A stretch of 64,000 nucleotides of DNA from Eubacteriales bacterium (GTDB lineage Bacteria; Bacillota; Clostridia; Oscillospirales; CAG-272), in NCBI GenBank assembly GCA_045629725.1, contig JAZQRT010000015.1, forward strand, positions 4,189 through 68,188. The letters are read 5' to 3'. The position numbers and the translations under genes are program-made. The notes under the pieces are model-generated. The model was not told the origin of the DNA. It searched no databases and saw only the letters and a program-made list of their open reading frames with translations. Shown piece by piece: positions 5,408-34,362 of the stretch. The first letter of the stretch is position 1; every line of letters begins with the position of its first letter.

Positions 5408-5436
5408 TTGAATTTTTTTTGTGTTTGTGATATGAT
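5408..5436 (+). promoter_or_regulatory. sigma-A type promoter upstream of the HIT gene
   Basis: TTGAAT, 17-nt spacer, TATGAT; located 57 nt upstream of ATG 5493. Confidence 0.5.
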
Positions 5437-5492
5437 ATACGTATAGCGTCCTATAAATAATTAAACTATAATAAAATCGGAGGGACAATAAA

Positions 5493-5831
5493 ATGAATTG
5501 TATTTTTTGCAAAATAATAAGCGGAGAGATTCCATCAAAAAAGGTATATGAAAATGACAAGCTTCTTGCTTTTTATGATATCAATCCCCAATCTTCCATT
5601 CACATTCTCGTAATTCCCAAGGAACACATTGCTTCTGTTGATGAAATAAACGAGGACAATGCCGATATCGTTGCGGAAATATTCAAAAACATTCCCAAGA
5701 TTGCCCTCCACGCAGGTATCCACGGTGGTTACAGAGTTGTTTCAAACTGCGGCGAAAACGCATGTCAAACAGTACACCACCTTCACTTCCACATTCTCGG
5801 CGGAGAAAAACTCTCCGAGCAGATGGCATAA
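5493..5831 (+). CDS. HIT family (HinT-like) nucleotide phosphoramidase
   Basis: 112 aa with the histidine triad HHLHFHILGG. RBS is GGAGGG. Confidence 0.9.
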   Translation: MNCIFCKIISGEIPSKKVYENDKLLAFYDINPQSSIHILVIPKEHIASVDEINEDNADIVAEIFKNIPKIALHAGIHGGYRVVSNCGENACQTVHHLHFHILGGEKLSEQMA

Positions 5832-5871
5832 TATAAGATACAAAATAAATTTCAGAAAGGTCGGGTTATAA

Positions 5872-7098
5872 TTGATAGAAAATAATAATTTTGAAAACAA
5901 TGGCAATGTAACCTCCGCATCTGAACTCCCTGAAAGGGAGCCAAAAGCGGAATTCGACATCAAAAGCTTTAACTCATATTCTCAGCCATATACGCACCAA
6001 GCAGAGCCTCCGCGCCAAGATACCGTGCCGCTCAGCTCATCAGAAGCACCGATCAAGCATCTTTCGCCCGATGGCTCATACTATACCCCCGAGGTACCCA
6101 CATGGTATTACGGATATAATGAAAATTCGGCAAAGCCACCCGTTGATCCCGCTCTTGAAGCACGTTTATTCAAAAAAGATCTGAGACGAAGATTTTCCTA
6201 CGTTGCATTTATGATTCTTGCAATGTTCTTCATATATCAGTTTGCAGGATCTCTTGCTCTTGGCATATACGCTGCCATGACAAATACAACGATTGAGGAT
6301 CTTTCTCAAACAGCCACCATGATCATCGGTACCCTTTCGATTGCTCTTGTGGGATTCCCCGTTTTGCTTCTTATGTTACTTCCCAAAAAAGCATCAAAGC
6401 CCATAAAATCAAAAACCAATCCAATCAAGCTGCTTCCTTACCTCACCATATCAGCTCTGTGTGTAATCTCAGGTGTTTTGCTTGGAAGCATTATTAAATC
6501 TGTACTTGGCGAGATCTTGGGAGCTGAGATGCAGGATATCGTATCAAGCGGACTTGAAGGCGTTCCGTTATGGCTGATCTTTATCTTTGTTTGTGTTTTC
6601 CCAGGAATATTTGAAGAGCTTATATTCCGCAAGCTTGTAATTGATAAAACAAGAGAGTTTGGTGATTTTGCGGCAGTTGTTTTTTCCGCCCTCACCTTTG
6701 GAATATTCCACGGAAATTTCGAGCAGTTCTTCTACGCATTCTTCACAGGTCTCCTTTTTGGATACGTATATGTAAAAACAGGACGCATTCTTTACACTAT
6801 AATCCTTCATACTACGGTAAATTTCTGCGGTTCAGTGGTTACAACCCTTATTCAGGATTCCACCGTCGCACAGTTGATTTATCTGATTGCAGTTTTTGTT
6901 ATCGGATTTATAGGCTTGATCGCCCTTGTTTTTGAGATAATTGACAATCACAAAAAATTCAACGATGATATAGGAATTCAAAAAATAGGCGGAACAGACG
7001 TTATTAAGGGTATATTCTTGAACCCCGGCGCTATTACGTTCTTTATTGTATTTATCTATGTTTTTGTTGAATATACACTTATGTCCTTCAGCTTATAA
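5872..7098 (+). CDS. CPBP family intramembrane glutamic endopeptidase with a long Pro/Ser/Tyr-rich N-terminal tail
   Basis: TTG start. Motifs FEELIFRKL and FGIFHGN lie within a polytopic membrane region. The first ~110 aa are low-complexity and non-hydrophobic. Confidence 0.8.
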   Translation: MIENNNFENNGNVTSASELPEREPKAEFDIKSFNSYSQPYTHQAEPPRQDTVPLSSSEAPIKHLSPDGSYYTPEVPTWYYGYNENSAKPPVDPALEARLFKKDLRRRFSYVAFMILAMFFIYQFAGSLALGIYAAMTNTTIEDLSQTATMIIGTLSIALVGFPVLLLMLLPKKASKPIKSKTNPIKLLPYLTISALCVISGVLLGSIIKSVLGEILGAEMQDIVSSGLEGVPLWLIFIFVCVFPGIFEELIFRKLVIDKTREFGDFAAVVFSALTFGIFHGNFEQFFYAFFTGLLFGYVYVKTGRILYTIILHTTVNFCGSVVTTLIQDSTVAQLIYLIAVFVIGFIGLIALVFEIIDNHKKFNDDIGIQKIGGTDVIKGIFLNPGAITFFIVFIYVFVEYTLMSFSL

Positions 7099-7100
7099 TC

Positions 7101-7982
7101 ATGAAAAAATATAACGCTTGGCTTACCGTCAACAGCTTTTTAAACACAAAAAAGTTTTCGGAGCTTTATTCATATCTTCTTGAGGCAGCAGAGAAAAGGG
7201 ATATCCTGCTTGAGATTAAAAAAACATCGGATATTCCTTTTTGCTCCGATGCCCCCCCTAAAAACAAGCCCGACTTCATTCTTTGGTGGGATAAAGACGT
7301 AAACCTTGCCGCGCTTTATGAAAATGCGGAAGTGAGGCTTTACAATTCCTCCCGAGCCATTGAATACTGTGACAACAAGGCTAAAACCGTTTTGGAGCTA
7401 TCAAAAAACAAAGCTATTCCCCTACCCCGCACCATTTTTGCACCCAAGACCTTTGCAGGCATCGGATATACAGATCTTTCTTTTCTTGATCACGCCGAGG
7501 ACATCCTCGGATATCCAATGATAATTAAGGAATGCTACGGCTCCTTCGGTGCACAGGTCTACCTTGCAAAGAACCGCCCCGAAGCCGAAAGCATTATAAA
7601 AGAAAGAATTATCGACCGCGAATTTATAATGCAGGAATTTATATCCGAGTCCTTTGGCAAAGACGTCAGAATAAACGTGGTGAAGGGACACGCTGTTTGC
7701 AGTATGATGCGCCATAACCCTGATGATTTTCGATCAAACATTACAAACGGCGGAAAGACGGTACTCTACGAACCCACAAAGGAGCAAATATCCGCAGCGG
7801 TTATTGCCACGGAAACACTCGGACTTGATTTTGCAGGTGTTGACGTGCTTTTCGGGAAGGACGGAGTACCCTATATTTGCGAGGTAAACTCCAATCCGCA
7901 CTTCAAAACAACTCTTGACTGTACGGGAATTAATCTTGCAGACCATATACTTGAGGGAATTATTGAGGATCTTGAAAAATGA
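7101..7982 (+). CDS. RimK-type ATP-grasp ligase (paralogue 1)
   Basis: 293 aa. YPMIIKECYGSFGAQVY ... DFRSNITNGG ... FAGVDVLF ... ICEVNSNP follows the RimK/LysX ATP-grasp pattern. Starts 2 nt after the CPBP stop. Confidence 0.8.
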   Translation: MKKYNAWLTVNSFLNTKKFSELYSYLLEAAEKRDILLEIKKTSDIPFCSDAPPKNKPDFILWWDKDVNLAALYENAEVRLYNSSRAIEYCDNKAKTVLELSKNKAIPLPRTIFAPKTFAGIGYTDLSFLDHAEDILGYPMIIKECYGSFGAQVYLAKNRPEAESIIKERIIDREFIMQEFISESFGKDVRINVVKGHAVCSMMRHNPDDFRSNITNGGKTVLYEPTKEQISAAVIATETLGLDFAGVDVLFGKDGVPYICEVNSNPHFKTTLDCTGINLADHILEGIIEDLEK

Positions 7983-8830
7983 AAGGGTATATTTTATACG
8001 ATCGAGAGGGCATATTGCGCAACCGCAGCTTTGCCGAGGCTATAATCGACCACGCTGAAAAAAGAAGCGTGAAAATCGAGATACTGCTTCGCGAGGACGT
8101 TCTGTGCACCATGCAGGACTCAAAGCTCTGCCTTGTTTCAAAAGATGGCAGGTCAATTACTGCGGATTTTATAATCAACAGATGCATCGACCCTCTTTTT
8201 GCCGAATTTGCAGAGAAATCAGGCATTAAAGTTTTTAATTCCGCTGAGGTTTGCAGAATATGCAACGACAAGCGCCTCACGCATATTCATTTTGCAGAAA
8301 AAGGCATTCCCATGGCAAACAGCGTTTTTCTCAATAAATATGACGAAGGATATTCTCCGAGTGAATATCCGAAGGTCCTTAAGGCTCCCGCAGGGCACGG
8401 CGGAAACGAAGTGTTTTTTATAAAAAACGAGATAGAATTAAAATCTCACAGCTTTACCCAAAGACTGATCCAGTCACCTGTAAAGACTCTTGGAAAGGAC
8501 CTCAGAGTTTACGTTTTAAACGGAGAGATACTCTCATCTGTGCTCAGGAGCTCCTCTCGGGATTTCCGAAGCAATTTTTCTCTTGGAGGCTCGGCGCAGA
8601 TCTATTATCCCTCCGAAAGAGAAAATGATCTTATAAAAAAGGTAATTGATGCTCTGCCAAAAGGAGCACTCTACGTTGGTATTGATTTTATTTTTGACGC
8701 AGACAAAATGCTTCTCAACGAGGTTGAAGACATCGTCGGCTCAAGAATGTTGTACCAAAAGACCTCCATCCCCGTCCATGAGCTTTTCACGGACAGCATT
8801 ATTAACGAAATGAACAAAGGAGAATCATAA
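7979..8830 (+). CDS. RimK-type ATP-grasp ligase (paralogue 2)
   Basis: 283 aa. DFRSNFSLGG ... VGIDFIF ... LNEVED follows the same pattern. ATGA start/stop overlap with paralogue 1. Confidence 0.75.
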   Translation: MKGYILYDREGILRNRSFAEAIIDHAEKRSVKIEILLREDVLCTMQDSKLCLVSKDGRSITADFIINRCIDPLFAEFAEKSGIKVFNSAEVCRICNDKRLTHIHFAEKGIPMANSVFLNKYDEGYSPSEYPKVLKAPAGHGGNEVFFIKNEIELKSHSFTQRLIQSPVKTLGKDLRVYVLNGEILSSVLRSSSRDFRSNFSLGGSAQIYYPSERENDLIKKVIDALPKGALYVGIDFIFDADKMLLNEVEDIVGSRMLYQKTSIPVHELFTDSIINEMNKGES

Positions 8831-9420
8831 TGGAAAACAAGGTTTTAAATGTTGCTGAGTGCAAGGAAAGATTTTTGAAGATCTGCCGTGAGAAAATAAA
8901 CCGCCCCGGACTTGAAAATCTTATTGAATGGCTCGAAAAAAGCGATTTCTTTTCTGCACCCGCAAGCTCCAAATTCCACGGAAACTATATCGGCGGACTT
9001 TGTGAACATTCCCTCAACGTATATGACGTTGCACTCCATTTGAAAGAAAAATACATGCCCGAGGGCATTCAGGATGAAAGCATCGCTATCGCGGCGCTTT
9101 TCCACGATCTTTGCAAGGTACACTGCTATAAAAAAGGCTTCAGAAACGTAAAAAACGATGCGGGTGTTTGGGAAAAGAAGGAAGTTTGGGAAATTGACGA
9201 GCGTCTGCCCCTCGGTCACGGCGAAAAAAGCTGTATCATTCTCCAGTGGTTCATCCGTCCCACAGTTGACGAGCTCATCGCTATACGTTGGCATATGTCA
9301 GGCTTTGACAAATCCGTTATCGGCGGCGACTATTCCATAAGCAAGGCTCAGGACTTCACTCCCCTTTGCGGACTTATTCAAGCGGCTGACATGATCGCCT
9401 CAAACCTTGTTGAAAGATAA
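8830..9420 (+). CDS. HD-domain metal-dependent phosphohydrolase
   Basis: 196 aa with FHG...CEHSL and LFHDLCK (His...His-Asp signature). TAATG overlap with the preceding gene. Confidence 0.75.
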   Translation: MENKVLNVAECKERFLKICREKINRPGLENLIEWLEKSDFFSAPASSKFHGNYIGGLCEHSLNVYDVALHLKEKYMPEGIQDESIAIAALFHDLCKVHCYKKGFRNVKNDAGVWEKKEVWEIDERLPLGHGEKSCIILQWFIRPTVDELIAIRWHMSGFDKSVIGGDYSISKAQDFTPLCGLIQAADMIASNLVER

Positions 9421-9423
9421 TTT

Positions 9424-9777
9424 ATGAATTTCAAGAAGGTTCCCAACCCCAAAAACAAGCTTTTTATTATCTTGGGGTTTTCGATATACGTTGTCGTCAT
9501 GCTCCTTACAGGTACCACTTGCCCCTTTAACAGATTTCTCGGGATAGTTTGTCCCGGATGCGGAATGACAAGAGCTCTTATTTGCGCTCTCCAGTTCAAA
9601 TTTGCCGATGCTTTTGACTACCACATGATGTTCTGGAGCATACCTCTGCTTTTCCTTTATTTTATTTTCGAAGGGAAGCTTTTTCGGAATAAATGGGCAG
9701 ATCGCGTCATATTAATTATTTTGTCAGTGGGATTTCTTATCAATTGGATCACAAGCATTATTTACGGAATTGGCTGA
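9424..9777 (+). CDS. DUF2752 family small membrane protein
   Basis: 117 aa with CPFNRFLGIVCPGCGMTRAL followed by hydrophobic helices. Confidence 0.65.
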   Translation: MNFKKVPNPKNKLFIILGFSIYVVVMLLTGTTCPFNRFLGIVCPGCGMTRALICALQFKFADAFDYHMMFWSIPLLFLYFIFEGKLFRNKWADRVILIILSVGFLINWITSIIYGIG

Positions 9778-9902
9778 AATTTGACGTTTTTTCCTTAAAA
9801 ATGTATATATTCGCAGAAATTACTATTGACAAAACGTTTACATTATGTTAAACTATGAACGATATTGGAAACAATAATTACTTTTATATGGAGGACTTTA
9901 AA

Positions 9903-10298
9903 ATGTTTTGCAAAAACTGTGGCGAACAGCTCAACGAAAACCAGGCAATCTGCGTTAAGTGCGGCGTAAAGGTTGGCGAAGGTTCAACTTTCTGCCCCAA
10001 CTGCGGCAACACAACAGCTCCCGATGCTGAGTACTGCCTCTCTTGCGGCGTTGCTCTTAAGAAGGCTGATAAGGCAGCAGACGCTCCCCTTGCAGGCAAG
10101 GACAAGATCGTTATCATTCTTGTTTGTCTTTTCCTCGGTGGACTTGGAATTCACAACTTCATGATGGGCGAAACAAAGAAGGGTATCGTAAGAATCGTTG
10201 CTTCTTTCCTTTGCGGACTTGGCGGAATTCTTGCTCTTATCGACCTTATCAAGATTTTGATGGACAAGTACGTTGTAGATCCTACAAAGCTTATCTAA
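9903..10298 (+). CDS. double zinc-ribbon / TM2-domain membrane protein
   Basis: The start is moved to the ATG preceded by GGAGGA (MFCKNCG...). Two CxxC...CxxC ribbons are followed by LFLGGLGIHNFMMGETKKGI, a TM2-like segment. Confidence 0.75.
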   Translation: MFCKNCGEQLNENQAICVKCGVKVGEGSTFCPNCGNTTAPDAEYCLSCGVALKKADKAADAPLAGKDKIVIILVCLFLGGLGIHNFMMGETKKGIVRIVASFLCGLGGILALIDLIKILMDKYVVDPTKLI

Positions 10299-10326
10299 TC
10301 TGATACATAAGATTAAATTGCTAAAT

Positions 10327-10360
10327 AAAAATGACTGTGCAAAAGCACAGTCATTTTTAT
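10327..10360. terminator. bidirectional intrinsic terminator between convergent genes
   Basis: AAAAATGACTGTGC-aaaa-GCACAGTCATTTTT: a perfect 10-bp stem flanked by an A-run and a T-run. Confidence 0.8.
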
Positions 10361-10367
10361 TTATGTA

Positions 10368-10724
10368 TCAATAGAATTCATATAAGATCTCCTCAAATAT
10401 CTCGAAAAAGCTATTCCAAAAGATCAGATCAAATATCGTTGAAAGTATACTCATAACGATGGAACCCACAACGGACACAACAACACCGACAAGAGCTCCG
10501 TTAAGCGCAGATTTCGCCTTTTTGGGTGAATCCGAGCAAAATACGGCATATAGAATAAATCCAACAATCGGGAGAAAAAATCCCAAAAGAGAAAAGGCAA
10601 GGCTTGATTCGTCCGACTTTGAAATATTTGTTTGAGAAGCCTTCTCCTCCACTAATTTTCCGCAGTGAACACACAAAGCCGCCTTATCGTCAAGTCCGCC
10701 GCCGCAATACCTGCAATATTTCAT
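10368..10724 (-). CDS. zinc-ribbon membrane protein (paralogue A)
   Basis: MKYCRYCGGGLDDKAALCVHCG ribbon followed by two hydrophobic segments containing the PKKAKSALNGA motif. Confidence 0.6.
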   Translation of the reverse strand: MKYCRYCGGGLDDKAALCVHCGKLVEEKASQTNISKSDESSLAFSLLGFFLPIVGFILYAVFCSDSPKKAKSALNGALVGVVVSVVGSIVMSILSTIFDLIFWNSFFEIFEEILYEFY

Positions 10725-10745
10725 ATCTTACACCTGTTTAGTACC

Positions 10746-11078
10746 TTATAAACCAATGAAAAGTCCGGCTTCGAGTGTGAATAAGAAAATAAAATAAACA
10801 GCGTAGAACAAGAGCGTAAAAGCAAACGAGGCAATCGTTCCTGCGATCGCTCCCTTAAGACATGATTTAGCCTTTTTAGGCATGTTACCGCTGTTTACTG
10901 CATAAAGAACAAATCCGATAATGGGAAAGAAAAAGCTAAGAAAAGCAAGTCCCGTACTTGGTGCATCATCCTTTGCAAGATTGCTTCCCGCAGCGGGAGC
11001 TTCAAGCTTTACTCCGCAATGAACGCAAATTGCAGCTTTATCGTCCACCTGTGCACCGCAGTTATAACAATATTTCAT
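10746..11078 (-). CDS. zinc-ribbon membrane protein (paralogue B)
   Basis: The start is moved to the ATG preceded by GGAGGT (MKYCYNCGAQVDDKAAICVHCG). Same architecture and PKKAKSCLKGA motif as paralogue A. Confidence 0.6.
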   Translation of the reverse strand: MKYCYNCGAQVDDKAAICVHCGVKLEAPAAGSNLAKDDAPSTGLAFLSFFFPIIGFVLYAVNSGNMPKKAKSCLKGAIAGTIASFAFTLLFYAVYFIFLFTLEAGLFIGL

Positions 11079-11148
11079 ATATCTACCTCCATACAACATT
11101 AAAATTGACAAGTCAAAGTTTATCACACTTTCTTTGACTTGTCAATAC

Positions 11149-14247: not shown

Positions 14248-14532
14248 AAAAAATAAAAACGCCTCGACATAAGGATACCCTTAAGTCAAGGACGAAAAAT
14301 ATTCGCGGTGCCACCTTGATTCACAGCTAAAAACCATGCTCTCTGCAAGATACAAACATATCTTTTGCAACTGACGTGTGCCATACGTCGCAGCCTACTA
14401 CCCTTTCAACTGCGCCCTCTGCGGTCCATTTGATGATCCGTGTTCTGCCCGGCTCTCAGCCTCCCGAGCTCTCTGTGAGAGCGTAACCACCTTTATCTCC
14501 GCTTCAACGGTTTAAATTATTAAATTTAGAAT
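14248..14532 (-). promoter_or_regulatory. T-box leader (probably Ser-specific) controlling serC-serA
   Basis: Minus strand carries AGAGAG and a GGCUGAGAG distal-loop-like element. The T-box core is AUCAAGGUGGCACCGCGAA. The antiterminator can be drawn as UCAAGG / bulge UGGCACC / GCGAA-loop-UUCGU / CCUUGA. A long terminator hairpin follows, ending in UUUUUAUUUUUU. Confidence 0.8.
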
Positions 14533-15817: not shown

Positions 15818-15975
15818 AATTATTTGAAAATCTCAAAGGGCATTTTTAAGCAAAAAAAAGCACCTTTTAGGCTTCACAAAACCGAAAAGGCAACAAACAA
15901 CAGTATAAATGTTATATGTTTCTCCTCGGTAGGAAAGTTTGCACTTTTACTGAAACCTACTGTCTTTGGATTTAC
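15818..15975 (-). promoter_or_regulatory. rplJ 5' leader, probably an L10-leader type attenuator
   Basis: The ~160-nt leader lies between a near-consensus promoter and rplJ. It contains a CCTTTT...AAAAGG hairpin followed by TGCTTTTTTTT. The assignment to the L10-leader family rests on position and the attenuator, not on a covariance-model score. Confidence 0.5.
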
Positions 15976-15981
15976 CTCGAT

Positions 15982-16010
15982 ATAATATCACACTTTTTCC
16001 TGTTTGTCAA
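15982..16010 (-). promoter_or_regulatory. promoter of rplJ-rplL
   Basis: Minus strand reads TTGACA, 17-nt spacer, TATTAT, immediately after the thiN stop. Confidence 0.7.
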
Positions 16011-17590: not shown

Positions 17591-17765
17591 TGAAAACAAA
17601 ACGGGTACACAACCTTTGTTGCATACCCGATATTTTTAATTCCTGCGATCATATTTTGATCTTTACTTGATCTTTAAATCTTCCTACGCCGGTATTATCC
17701 GTATCAGGTTAAAGGGTTCGGTTTCCCGTCTCAGCTAAGGCAACTGCCGTCGCACCCCTGATTTT
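17591..17765 (-). promoter_or_regulatory. TPP (THI-box) riboswitch with terminator expression platform
   Basis: Minus strand reads CAGGGGTGC...CTGAGA...ACCCTTTAACCTGATACGGATAATACCGGCGTAGGAAG. Further on, GGGTATGCAAC-aaag-GTTGTGTACCC is followed by GTTTTGTTTT. Confidence 0.9.
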
Positions 17766-17782
17766 CATTTAATTGTAGATTG

Positions 17783-34077: not shown

Positions 34078-34362
34078 TACAAAGACTGTGAAGGGAATCA
34101 AATTTGCAAAGGCATCCCAGAGAGCCGTCATTTGCTGTGAGACGGTATGCGAAGCGAACATAACTCATCCCTGAGTCGCCGACCGAAAGAGCTTGGCTTT
34201 AGTAGACTCGGACGGGTTCTCCCGTTACAGAGAAGTTCGTTTTGTGACGAACACAAGTGGGTGATGCTCTCACCAAAAAAGAGTGGTACCGCGGAGAACT
34301 TTTTTAATCTTCGTCTCTTTTATGCAAAAGTTATTGTTACTGATGCGTAAAGGGGATTTTTT
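34078..34362 (+). promoter_or_regulatory. T-box leader, Leu (CUC) specifier, controlling leuA-ilvBNC
   Basis: AGAGAG and CUGUGAGA elements, with AUAA-CUC-A in the specifier position. The T-box core is AAGAGUGGUACCGCGG. The antiterminator is AAAAGAG / bulge UGGUACC / GCGGAG-loop-CUUCGU / CUCUUUU. The terminator is UCUCUUUUAUGC...GCGUAAAGGGGA followed by UUUUUU. Confidence 0.8.

Follow-up and report, generated by a model that had tools for sequence, protein, structure and literature searches.

RimK is an ATP-grasp ligase that acts on the C-terminus of the ribosomal protein S6 and is built as a homotetramer of one protein. The RimK of Pseudomonas has a hydrolase, RimB, as its partner (PMC11957791), in E. 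coli the rimK gene stands alone, without partner genes (PMC10092738), and poly-alpha-glutamate is made by RimK in vitro (PMC10375531). The related ligases LysX and ArgX attach an amino acid to the protein LysW, at its C-terminal Glu. In eukaryotes, the tubulin code is written by ATP-grasp glutamate ligases of the tubulin tyrosine ligase-like (TTLL) type and erased by metallo-hydrolases, the cytosolic carboxypeptidases (CCP). Here we address an array of six genes, encoding a HIT protein, a CPBP protease, two ATP-grasp ligases (AG1 and AG2), an HD phosphohydrolase and a DUF2752 protein, in a 64,000-nucleotide stretch of DNA from an Eubacteriales bacterium (GenBank assembly GCA_045629725.1, contig JAZQRT010000015.1, positions 4,189 to 68,188), the whole of which is called the window. 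An initial annotation, made from the sequence letters, regarded the array as a dedicated two-step amino-acid ligation or peptide-tailing module operating at the membrane. Our analysis retains a dedicated unit of two ligases, which is widespread and uncharacterised, whereas the other four genes are specific to one lineage and the six-gene pathway is not supported.

The ligase pair resembles the RimK/RimB system in two respects. AG1 belongs to the same Pfam and NCBIfam family, with a fold similarity (TM-score) of about 0.8 and the same catalytic motifs, and in some lineages the pair is accompanied by an FGase-like amidohydrolase, a possible trimming hydrolase as RimB is in Pseudomonas. However, the pair consists of two diverged, sometimes fused paralogues rather than of one protein, the FGase-like enzyme is unrelated to the RimB family, and a tail-anchored partner, U440, stands on the side of the pair. 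LysX and ArgX include the closest solved relatives of AG2, but no gene for a LysW-like small acidic zinc-ribbon protein adjoins the pair, no lysine or arginine biosynthesis genes lie around it, and AG2 carries E-x-E-D in the place of E-x-N. The likeness to TTLL and CCP is a functional analogy only, as homology is limited to the ATP-grasp superfamily (the TTL Pfam similarity is marginal), the hydrolase is of another family, and the present system is bacterial and apparently membrane-linked. The CPBP protein of the window has the full motif set of CPBP/Rce1-like proteases, such as MroQ and Mrt of C-terminal sorting, and passes the Pfam model. Nevertheless, it reaches no NCBIfam equivalog cut-off (matches to ABC_perm_CPBP and MroQ are partial), no peptide or sorting-signal substrate gene is adjacent, and its link with the ligases is confined to one clade.

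The AG1-AG2 ligase pair

AG1 and AG2 are conserved together in many genomes. Of 89 non-redundant loci searched with family hidden Markov models (HMMs), 77 have AG2 as the very next gene after AG1, on the same strand, and one more locus has AG2 2.5 kb downstream of AG1. The junction between the two genes measures 3 nt or less in 46 of the 77 pairs, with an ATGA overlap in 27. Four clusters (50% identity) of natural full-length fusions, 565-593 aa in length, with AG1 as the N-terminal and AG2 as the C-terminal half (P0361, P0363, P0368 and P0423), keep the gene order, and most of them occur on several independent contigs. Because of this conserved adjacency, the overlapping junctions and the natural fusions, AG1 and AG2 very probably are one working unit, of which the other four array genes are not general partners.

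The pair is widely distributed. A pattern scan of species-representative genomes returned at least 581 confirmed stretches with AG1; the best 80 of these belong to Lachnospiraceae, Oscillospiraceae, Eubacterium, Christensenella and other Clostridia, and paired loci are also present in Acetivibrio. Anaerocolumna jejuensis DSM 15929, Mobilisporobacter senegalensis DSM 26537 and Acetivibrio saccincola are among the cultured carriers. An exhaustive search for AG2 gave 260 representatives at E <= 1e-30, and the homologues of AG1 number in the thousands. Among the Clostridia that dominate gut and rumen communities, several hundred species-level genomes or more carry the ligase pair. In the literature searched, we found no published characterisation of it, and no paper linking RimK with CPBP, describing a tandem RimK pair in Clostridia, or linking ATP-grasp enzymes with formylglutamate amidohydrolase.

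The surroundings of the pair vary from lineage to lineage. No gene family generally flanks it, judging from flank clustering in 81 loci and from Pfam scans of the adjacent genes. All-against-all clustering of the flanks gave FtsK (17 of 81 loci) and, downstream of the pair, formate-tetrahydrofolate ligase (13 of 81) as the best families, the latter being the gene immediately past the pair in 5 of 79 loci, and both linkages track Lachnospiraceae synteny, with tepA-ylzJ-ftsK upstream. Conservation of all six genes across Clostridia, on which the idea of a six-gene module depended, was not found: only AG1-AG2 recurs, which speaks largely against that idea.

The two ligases are diverged paralogues of the RimK family, as first annotated, being 26% identical and both carrying a DFRSN..GG motif. 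AG1 matches PF08443 at 122.7 bits (cut-off 21) and passes TIGR00768 (rimK_fam), the subfamily model of RimK-family alpha-L-glutamate ligases, at 163.8 bits over a cut-off of 143.4. By sequence, its closest solved structures are those of RimK (7qyr and 5zct, E ~1e-21), and its AlphaFold2 model, with a predicted local distance difference test (pLDDT) value of 93.6, has ArgX, RimK and LysX as Foldseek neighbours at a TM-score of ~0.8. The translation reads DDFRSNITNGG at the motif, and 23 homologues show no variation at K143, the GSFG loop, DFRSN-GG, D248 and E261-x-N263. The full catalytic set of the RimK family is present in AG1, including the ATP-binding Lys, the Gly-rich loop, the Arg of DFRSN and the Asp/Glu-x-Asn magnesium ligands.

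AG2 is more distant. It meets the PF08443 cut-off with 52 bits and stays under that of TIGR00768 with 100 bits, and among solved structures ArgX 3vpb is closest to it both by sequence (E 8e-12) and by fold (E 5e-21, TM-score 0.78-0.80; model pLDDT 94.4). Its motif reads RDFRSNFSLGG, and fourteen positions are invariant in 42 homologues (K135, G142, Q165, D174, R176, R190, N199, G203, G204, D236, E248, E250, D251 and R256); in all 42, the usual E-x-N of ATP-grasp enzymes is replaced by E-x-E-D (E248-x-E250-D251). The invariant positions include the Lys that binds ATP, the DFRSN Arg, and the Asp and Glu that serve as metal ligands. Both AG1 and AG2 have the complete three-domain ATP-grasp fold, with Foldseek TM-scores of 0.75-0.84 to ArgX, LysX and RimK, and both look catalytically active; AG2 is under selection and probably functions as an enzyme.

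Membership in a known system was judged by the cut-offs of NCBIfam equivalog models, and neither ligase passes any of those for RimK, LysX, MptN, CofF, MfnD or glutathione synthase. On the model of RimK proper (NF007764, cut-off 331), AG1 scores 85.1 bits and AG2 22.6 bits; on that of LysX/ArgX (TIGR02144, cut-off 275.6), the two ligases score 112 and 66.4 bits. The cut-offs were likewise missed for CofF (64.6 bits against 300), MptN (100.1 against 350) and MfnD (22.6 against 400). The graspetide maturase model TIGR04187 gave 19.3 bits against 350, with no candidate peptide downstream of AG2 among the open reading frames (ORFs) with an acidic C-terminus, the only kind searched for. AG1 thus belongs to the RimK family, with AG2 as a diverged relative; neither is RimK proper, LysX/ArgX, CofF or MptN, and both fall outside the clades of known function.

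Candidate partners, chemistry and acceptor

In other lineages, the pair is joined by two further genes. In seven lineages (L004, L007, L023, L027, L043, L063 and L088), the two genes that immediately precede AG1 encode an FGase-like amidohydrolase and U440, and L073 has the former without U440; these loci, with the genes about 2 kb upstream of AG1, are dispersed over the AG1 tree. The FGase-like protein has about 200 aa, belongs to PF05013 and keeps invariant His, Glu and His residues. U440, with 405-446 aa, falls in no Pfam or NCBIfam family and gives weak matches to CDC48_N and to designed double-psi-barrels; as it has a transmembrane helix at its C-terminal end, with a conserved LSSKRNMR motif behind the helix, it is taken to be tail-anchored. 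The protein P0492 is a fusion of AG2 and U440 (AG2 HMM 295 bits; U440 HMM independent E-value 8e-50), and at L175:918-4575 the order is FGase-like, AG1 and AG2::U440, with overlapping junctions. The occurrence of these four components in two arrangements is the strongest functional association found. The membrane location proposed at first thereby receives indirect support, although through U440 of other lineages and not through CPBP.

Taken as a whole, the account that we favour is held with slightly more belief than doubt. The array would be a co-transcribed cluster of one uncultured Oscillospiraceae/Ruminococcaceae-like lineage, in which AG1-AG2 alone would form the functional core, glutamate ligation would be the chemistry, and the FGase-like and U440 proteins would be the partners in other lineages. 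HIT, CPBP, HD and DUF2752 would be neighbours acquired in the lineage and not required parts. AG1, which is RimK-like, and AG2, which is LysX/ArgX-like, would work jointly, probably in a hetero-oligomer whose two active sites differ. Following established ATP-grasp chemistry, each ligase would convert a carboxylate into an activated acyl-phosphate and couple an amine to it. Membership in the RimK family suggests L-glutamate as the most likely amino acid to be added, and two sites could serve two successive or distinct additions, such as priming and then extension.

The acceptor would most likely be a protein or peptide with an acidic residue at its C-terminus, to which the amino acid is joined, because the closest solved relatives act in this way (RimK on S6, LysX/ArgX on LysW) and the barrel of U440 is of a peptide-binding type. 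The FGase-like protein would probably be the eraser of the added residue, by analogy with RimB for RimK and CCP for TTLL, and U440, a predicted double-psi beta-barrel with a tail anchor, would probably be an adaptor or a target. Since U440 is tail-anchored, the reaction would take place on the cytoplasmic side of the membrane in the lineages that have it. The specific chemistry, namely the addition of Glu to a protein or peptide C-terminus, is put forward tentatively. If membrane glutamate tailing of proteins or peptides is true, it would extend RimK-type modification to Gram-positive anaerobes, with a candidate eraser and a candidate adaptor. It is unlikely, in our estimate, that AG1-AG2, the FGase-like protein and U440 make up an undescribed writer and eraser of Glu tails on proteins or peptides at the cytoplasmic side of the membrane, shared by hundreds of gut and rumen Clostridia, in which CPBP took over the role of the membrane partner in the window lineage, for example by creating the C-terminus that is extended.

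The main rival is a small-molecule acceptor, which we regard as possible, if rather doubtful. AG1 and AG2 would then make or lengthen a metabolite or cofactor that contains glutamyl residues, namely a CofF/MptN-like alpha-glutamyl cap, an alpha-glutamyl tail on a folate or pterin, a dipeptide like N-acetylaspartylglutamate (NAAG), or free poly-alpha-glutamate, the last of which RimK produces in vitro (PMC10375531). Members of the RimK family with such acceptors exist, the models of CofF and MptN score partially, and no protein substrate gene adjoins the pair. Its contexts are housekeeping and variable, with the formate-tetrahydrofolate ligase downstream at the frequencies given above, and the FGase family acts on N-acyl-glutamate according to its annotation (PF05013). 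However, the solved relatives closest by sequence and by fold all work on protein C-termini, the equivalog cut-offs are missed by wide margins, and a membrane-anchored barrel of the peptide-binding type fits a macromolecular target better. The linkage with the formate-tetrahydrofolate ligase gene (fhs) follows Lachnospiraceae synteny, and no riboswitch was found at the loci searched.

The two remaining proposals for the acceptor are less likely. AG1 and AG2 could be the clostridial equivalent of RimK proper and polyglutamylate S6 (RpsF), in which case the second paralogue would prime or modulate the reaction. The best sequence matches of AG1 are RimK structures, one PHROG family that it matches carries the annotation of an S6-modifying enzyme, and some contexts are related to translation (ylxM-ffh-rpsP-rimM-trmD in L093; a radical-SAM/TRAM methylthiotransferase of the RimO/MiaB type in L001). 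The rimK gene of E. coli likewise has no partner genes (PMC10092738), and RimK with RimB in Pseudomonas parallels the FGase-like partner (PMC11957791). Against this stand the RimK equivalog score of 85 bits compared with 331 and a membrane-anchored partner that can be fused to AG2, which is hard to square with a ribosomal target, so that modification of S6 appears improbable. A still fainter prospect is that the pair modifies an envelope precursor by adding an amino acid to the free carboxylate of a peptidoglycan stem peptide or of a polymer of the teichoic-acid type. U440 is anchored in the membrane, and AG2 is weakly similar to the models of D-Ala-D-Ala ligase and of a putative pseudomurein ATP-grasp protein, but its scores are far under their cut-offs and no mur, fem or cell-wall genes recur around the pair. 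ATP-grasp D-Asp ligases of peptidoglycan are known, which favours an envelope role, and the families that carry the pair differ in peptidoglycan type, which disfavours it.

Several observations weigh against the favoured account. The RimK-family enzymes CofF, MptN and RIMKLA/B use small-molecule acceptors. The E-x-E-D of AG2 may mean an altered chemistry or a regulatory role. U440 and the FGase-like protein are absent from the 64-kb window, and they are adjacent to the pair in only about 10% of loci. No conserved small ORF with an acidic C-terminus lies downstream of AG2 in the paired loci, the sole match being a fragment of the next gene in L006; this agrees with the initial annotation, which could name no substrate gene. 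Neither the window nor any of the retrieved loci contains rpsF, and so there is no S6 C-terminus to inspect there. Rfam models found no riboswitch or T-box ahead of the array in the window, nor in 10 further loci where a long gap precedes the genes, and thus no clue to a metabolite.

The last of these observations concerns CPBP. In 1.08 Mb of flanks of AG pairs, only two CPBP genes were found besides the orthologues of the window gene, and each is upstream of AG1 by no more than 2.3 kb (L006:5809-7908 and L055:5663-7862), a placement with a chance probability of ~0.03-0.1 by position alone. In L006, an ACT and metallo-beta-lactamase protein is encoded between CPBP and AG1; in L055, CPBP is on the opposite strand and an AI-2E transporter gene lies between. 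The two genes give a weak hint of a non-random link between CPBP and the pair.

The six-gene array and its neighbours in one lineage

The six ORFs of the array lie on the same strand, with junctions of 40, 2, -4 (ATGA), -1 (TAATG) and 3 nt from HIT through DUF2752 (Table 1). ORF calling reproduced these junctions of the initial annotation exactly, and profile searches bear out its six domain identities (PF01230, PF02517, PF08443 twice, PF01966 and PF10825). Junctions of 3 nt or less make up 18 of the 48 same-strand gene pairs in the window, with one mechanical ORF rule throughout, and further runs of 5 and 3 such junctions are present elsewhere in it. Since tight packing is ordinary in the window, the junctions argue for co-transcription and not for shared function.

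Table 1. Features of the array and of the rest of the window, in window positions
Feature	Position	Strand	Length	Remarks
Promoter-like site	5408-5436	+		TTGAAT-17-TATGAT with extended-10 TG, upstream of HIT; consensus match only, function not implied
HIT	5493-5831	+	112 aa	HIT/HinT-like protein; PF01230 93 bits; HHLHFHILGG motif; lineage-specific neighbour
CPBP	5872-7098	+	408 aa	CPBP/Rce1-like glutamic intramembrane protease; TTG start; lineage-specific upstream neighbour
AG1	7101-7982	+	293 aa	RimK-family ATP-grasp ligase; first half of the ligase pair
AG2	7979-8830	+	283 aa	Diverged RimK/LysX-like ATP-grasp ligase; second half of the pair; start overlaps AG1 stop (ATGA)
HD	8830-9420	+	196 aa	Stand-alone HD phosphohydrolase; PF01966 27.4 bits; neighbour only in nearest relatives
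DUF2752	9424-9777	+	117 aa	Small membrane protein; PF10825 59.4 bits
Zinc-ribbon genes	9855-11126			Three small zinc-ribbon membrane proteins, one with a TM2 domain
Terminator	10323-10363	strand-neutral		First strong intrinsic terminator past the array; 19-bp perfect palindrome with flanking A and T runs; dG -24.8 kcal/mol, z -9.4
T-box leader	14285-14516	-		
L10 leader	15846-15987	-		
Thiamine pyrophosphate (TPP) riboswitch	17664-17769	-		
T-box leader	34079-34321	+		

HIT is the probable first gene of the array transcript. The array had been described as having neither hairpin nor promoter-like sequence between its genes; the first part stands, as no terminator-like hairpin occurs at any of its junctions, and the second does not strictly hold, since a lax scan gives several weak internal promoter-like matches (for example, TATACA-16-TATAAT at 7072-7099). 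No stable structure was found in 9770-9860. The first strong terminator sits beyond the next gene after DUF2752 and is shared with a convergent gene; this hairpin is likely to be a bidirectional terminator between the convergent genes. Its palindrome was missed by a consensus terminator scan. Shine-Dalgarno sequences precede HIT (GGAGGG), AG2 (GAGGA) and HD (AAGGAG), and none is present for AG1, whose start falls 2 nt past the CPBP stop.

CPBP matches PF02517 at 74.3 bits (cut-off 22.4). Its translation contains the motifs EELIFR (EExxxR), FGIFH (FxxxH) and HTTVN (HxxxN), the first two of which had been recognised initially, and six orthologues show no variation at E248, E249, R253, H280, H313 and N317. 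The region of about 105 aa rich in Pro, Ser and Tyr, first described as a cytoplasmic tail of some 110 aa, is in fact N-terminal, and because of this position it cannot be a C-terminal substrate of the RimK type. The region is of low complexity, spans about 50-190 aa across the six orthologues, and is poorly conserved apart from an MxENxN start and an FDI motif; the MxENxN N-termini common to the orthologues support the TTG start. At L087:488-1957, the N-terminal region of the CPBP orthologue reaches ~190 aa with tandem NPAPAVNSTSMV-like repeats, which shows the fast evolution of this region.

CPBP and HIT accompany the pair in one clade. Six related contigs, with AG1 identities as low as 58%, retain the order HIT-CPBP-AG1-AG2; orthologues of CPBP lie upstream of AG1 only in L003, L084, L087, L090 and L092, and HIT is found with the pair in the same clade only. 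At 76% AG1 identity (L084), all six genes and a zinc-ribbon/TM2 gene are present. At 70% (L087), HIT-CPBP-AG1-AG2 is followed by a 116-nt gap and HD, and DUF2752 and the zinc-ribbon genes are missing as a block. At 58-60% (L003, L090 and L092), HIT-CPBP-AG1-AG2 alone is kept, followed by phage-portal or unrelated genes, and at 57% (L091), the AG pair stands by itself in another context. The CPBP-bearing loci form one clade in the AG1 tree, in which four of the six contigs were placed, and five of the six contigs also have in common the divergently transcribed flank prfB-nif3-trmK-DUF1858, the contig of L087 being too short to show it. As the loci belong to one clade and share an unrelated flank, their similarity is one of descent, and the conservation of HIT and CPBP with the pair is explained by common descent.

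This bears on the proposal that the six genes form one membrane pathway, in which CPBP would cleave or anchor the substrate, the ligases would tail it, and HIT and HD would proofread or hydrolyse by-products. Such a pathway would agree with the tight or overlapping junctions, with the absence of a terminator before 10323, and with the lack of a Shine-Dalgarno sequence for AG1 so close behind CPBP. It would also agree with the persistence of HIT-CPBP-AG1-AG2 in the six contigs, with the place of CPBP, which is held by the membrane protein U440 elsewhere, and with the position of the two other CPBP genes in the flanks. We nonetheless judge it quite improbable. Descent accounts for the conservation, tight junctions are the norm in the window, a Rce1-like gene is the nearest one upstream of AG1 in only 3 of the 80 loci scanned with Pfam, which are all closely related, and the CPBP gene of L055 is on the other strand behind the transporter gene. 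HD and DUF2752 are gone at 60% AG1 identity, DUF2752 moves with the zinc-ribbon block, and HD homologues are never near other array genes in 80 loci. To our knowledge, HIT proteins, with their acyl-adenylate and phosphoramidate chemistry, and HD proteins have no mechanistic place in the acyl-phosphate chemistry of ATP-grasp ligases, to which their chemistry is unrelated. The locus thus carries a caution for annotation: an overlapping gene run in a compact genome is not equal to a pathway, and comparative context drops four of the six genes here.

HD is a neighbour of the pair only among the nearest relatives. It follows AG2 only at 70% AG1 identity or above, is absent in L003, L090 and L092, and is not among the recurrent families directly downstream of AG2 in the Pfam scan. 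The reverse neighbourhood test was negative, as none of AG1, AG2, CPBP, HIT and DUF2752 lies within 5 kb of HD homologues (47-61% identical) in 80 metagenome loci, and HD was rejected as a ligase partner. The clustering of neighbours in these loci was noisy, with spurious ORFs on high-GC contigs, and was used qualitatively only. The family is large, with 5915 matches, and HD itself matches a phage phosphohydrolase (phrog_28876) at 1.6e-48. HD homologues adjoin genes for Erf-like single-strand annealing proteins in L104 and in five other loci of L095-L174; these neighbours and the strong PHROG match suggest that the family is often prophage-borne. PPR matches for HD were discarded as artefacts, with no qualifying stretch, and HD has no solved relative. 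At L003:8586-10525, genes for a P22/SU10-type portal and a Prp peptidase lie directly past AG2, in the place that HD takes in the window, and insertions, some of them phage-derived, seem to occur readily at the site downstream of AG2.

The window and L084 are the only places where DUF2752 follows HD. DUF2752 is present there along with the zinc-ribbon genes and absent together with them in L087, and it belongs with this downstream block of zinc-ribbon/TM2 membrane proteins. The ORF at 9855 more likely starts at 9903, with GGAGG 8 nt upstream of the latter.

The array was also considered as an anti-phage defence system and rejected, as the PADLOC models gave no match of substance: a generic HIT match (ThsC2) and weak Cas3-HD matches were returned, and none for CPBP, AG1, AG2 or DUF2752. 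The two T-box leaders, the TPP riboswitch and the L10 leader in Table 1 exceed their Rfam gathering scores and are unrelated to the array.

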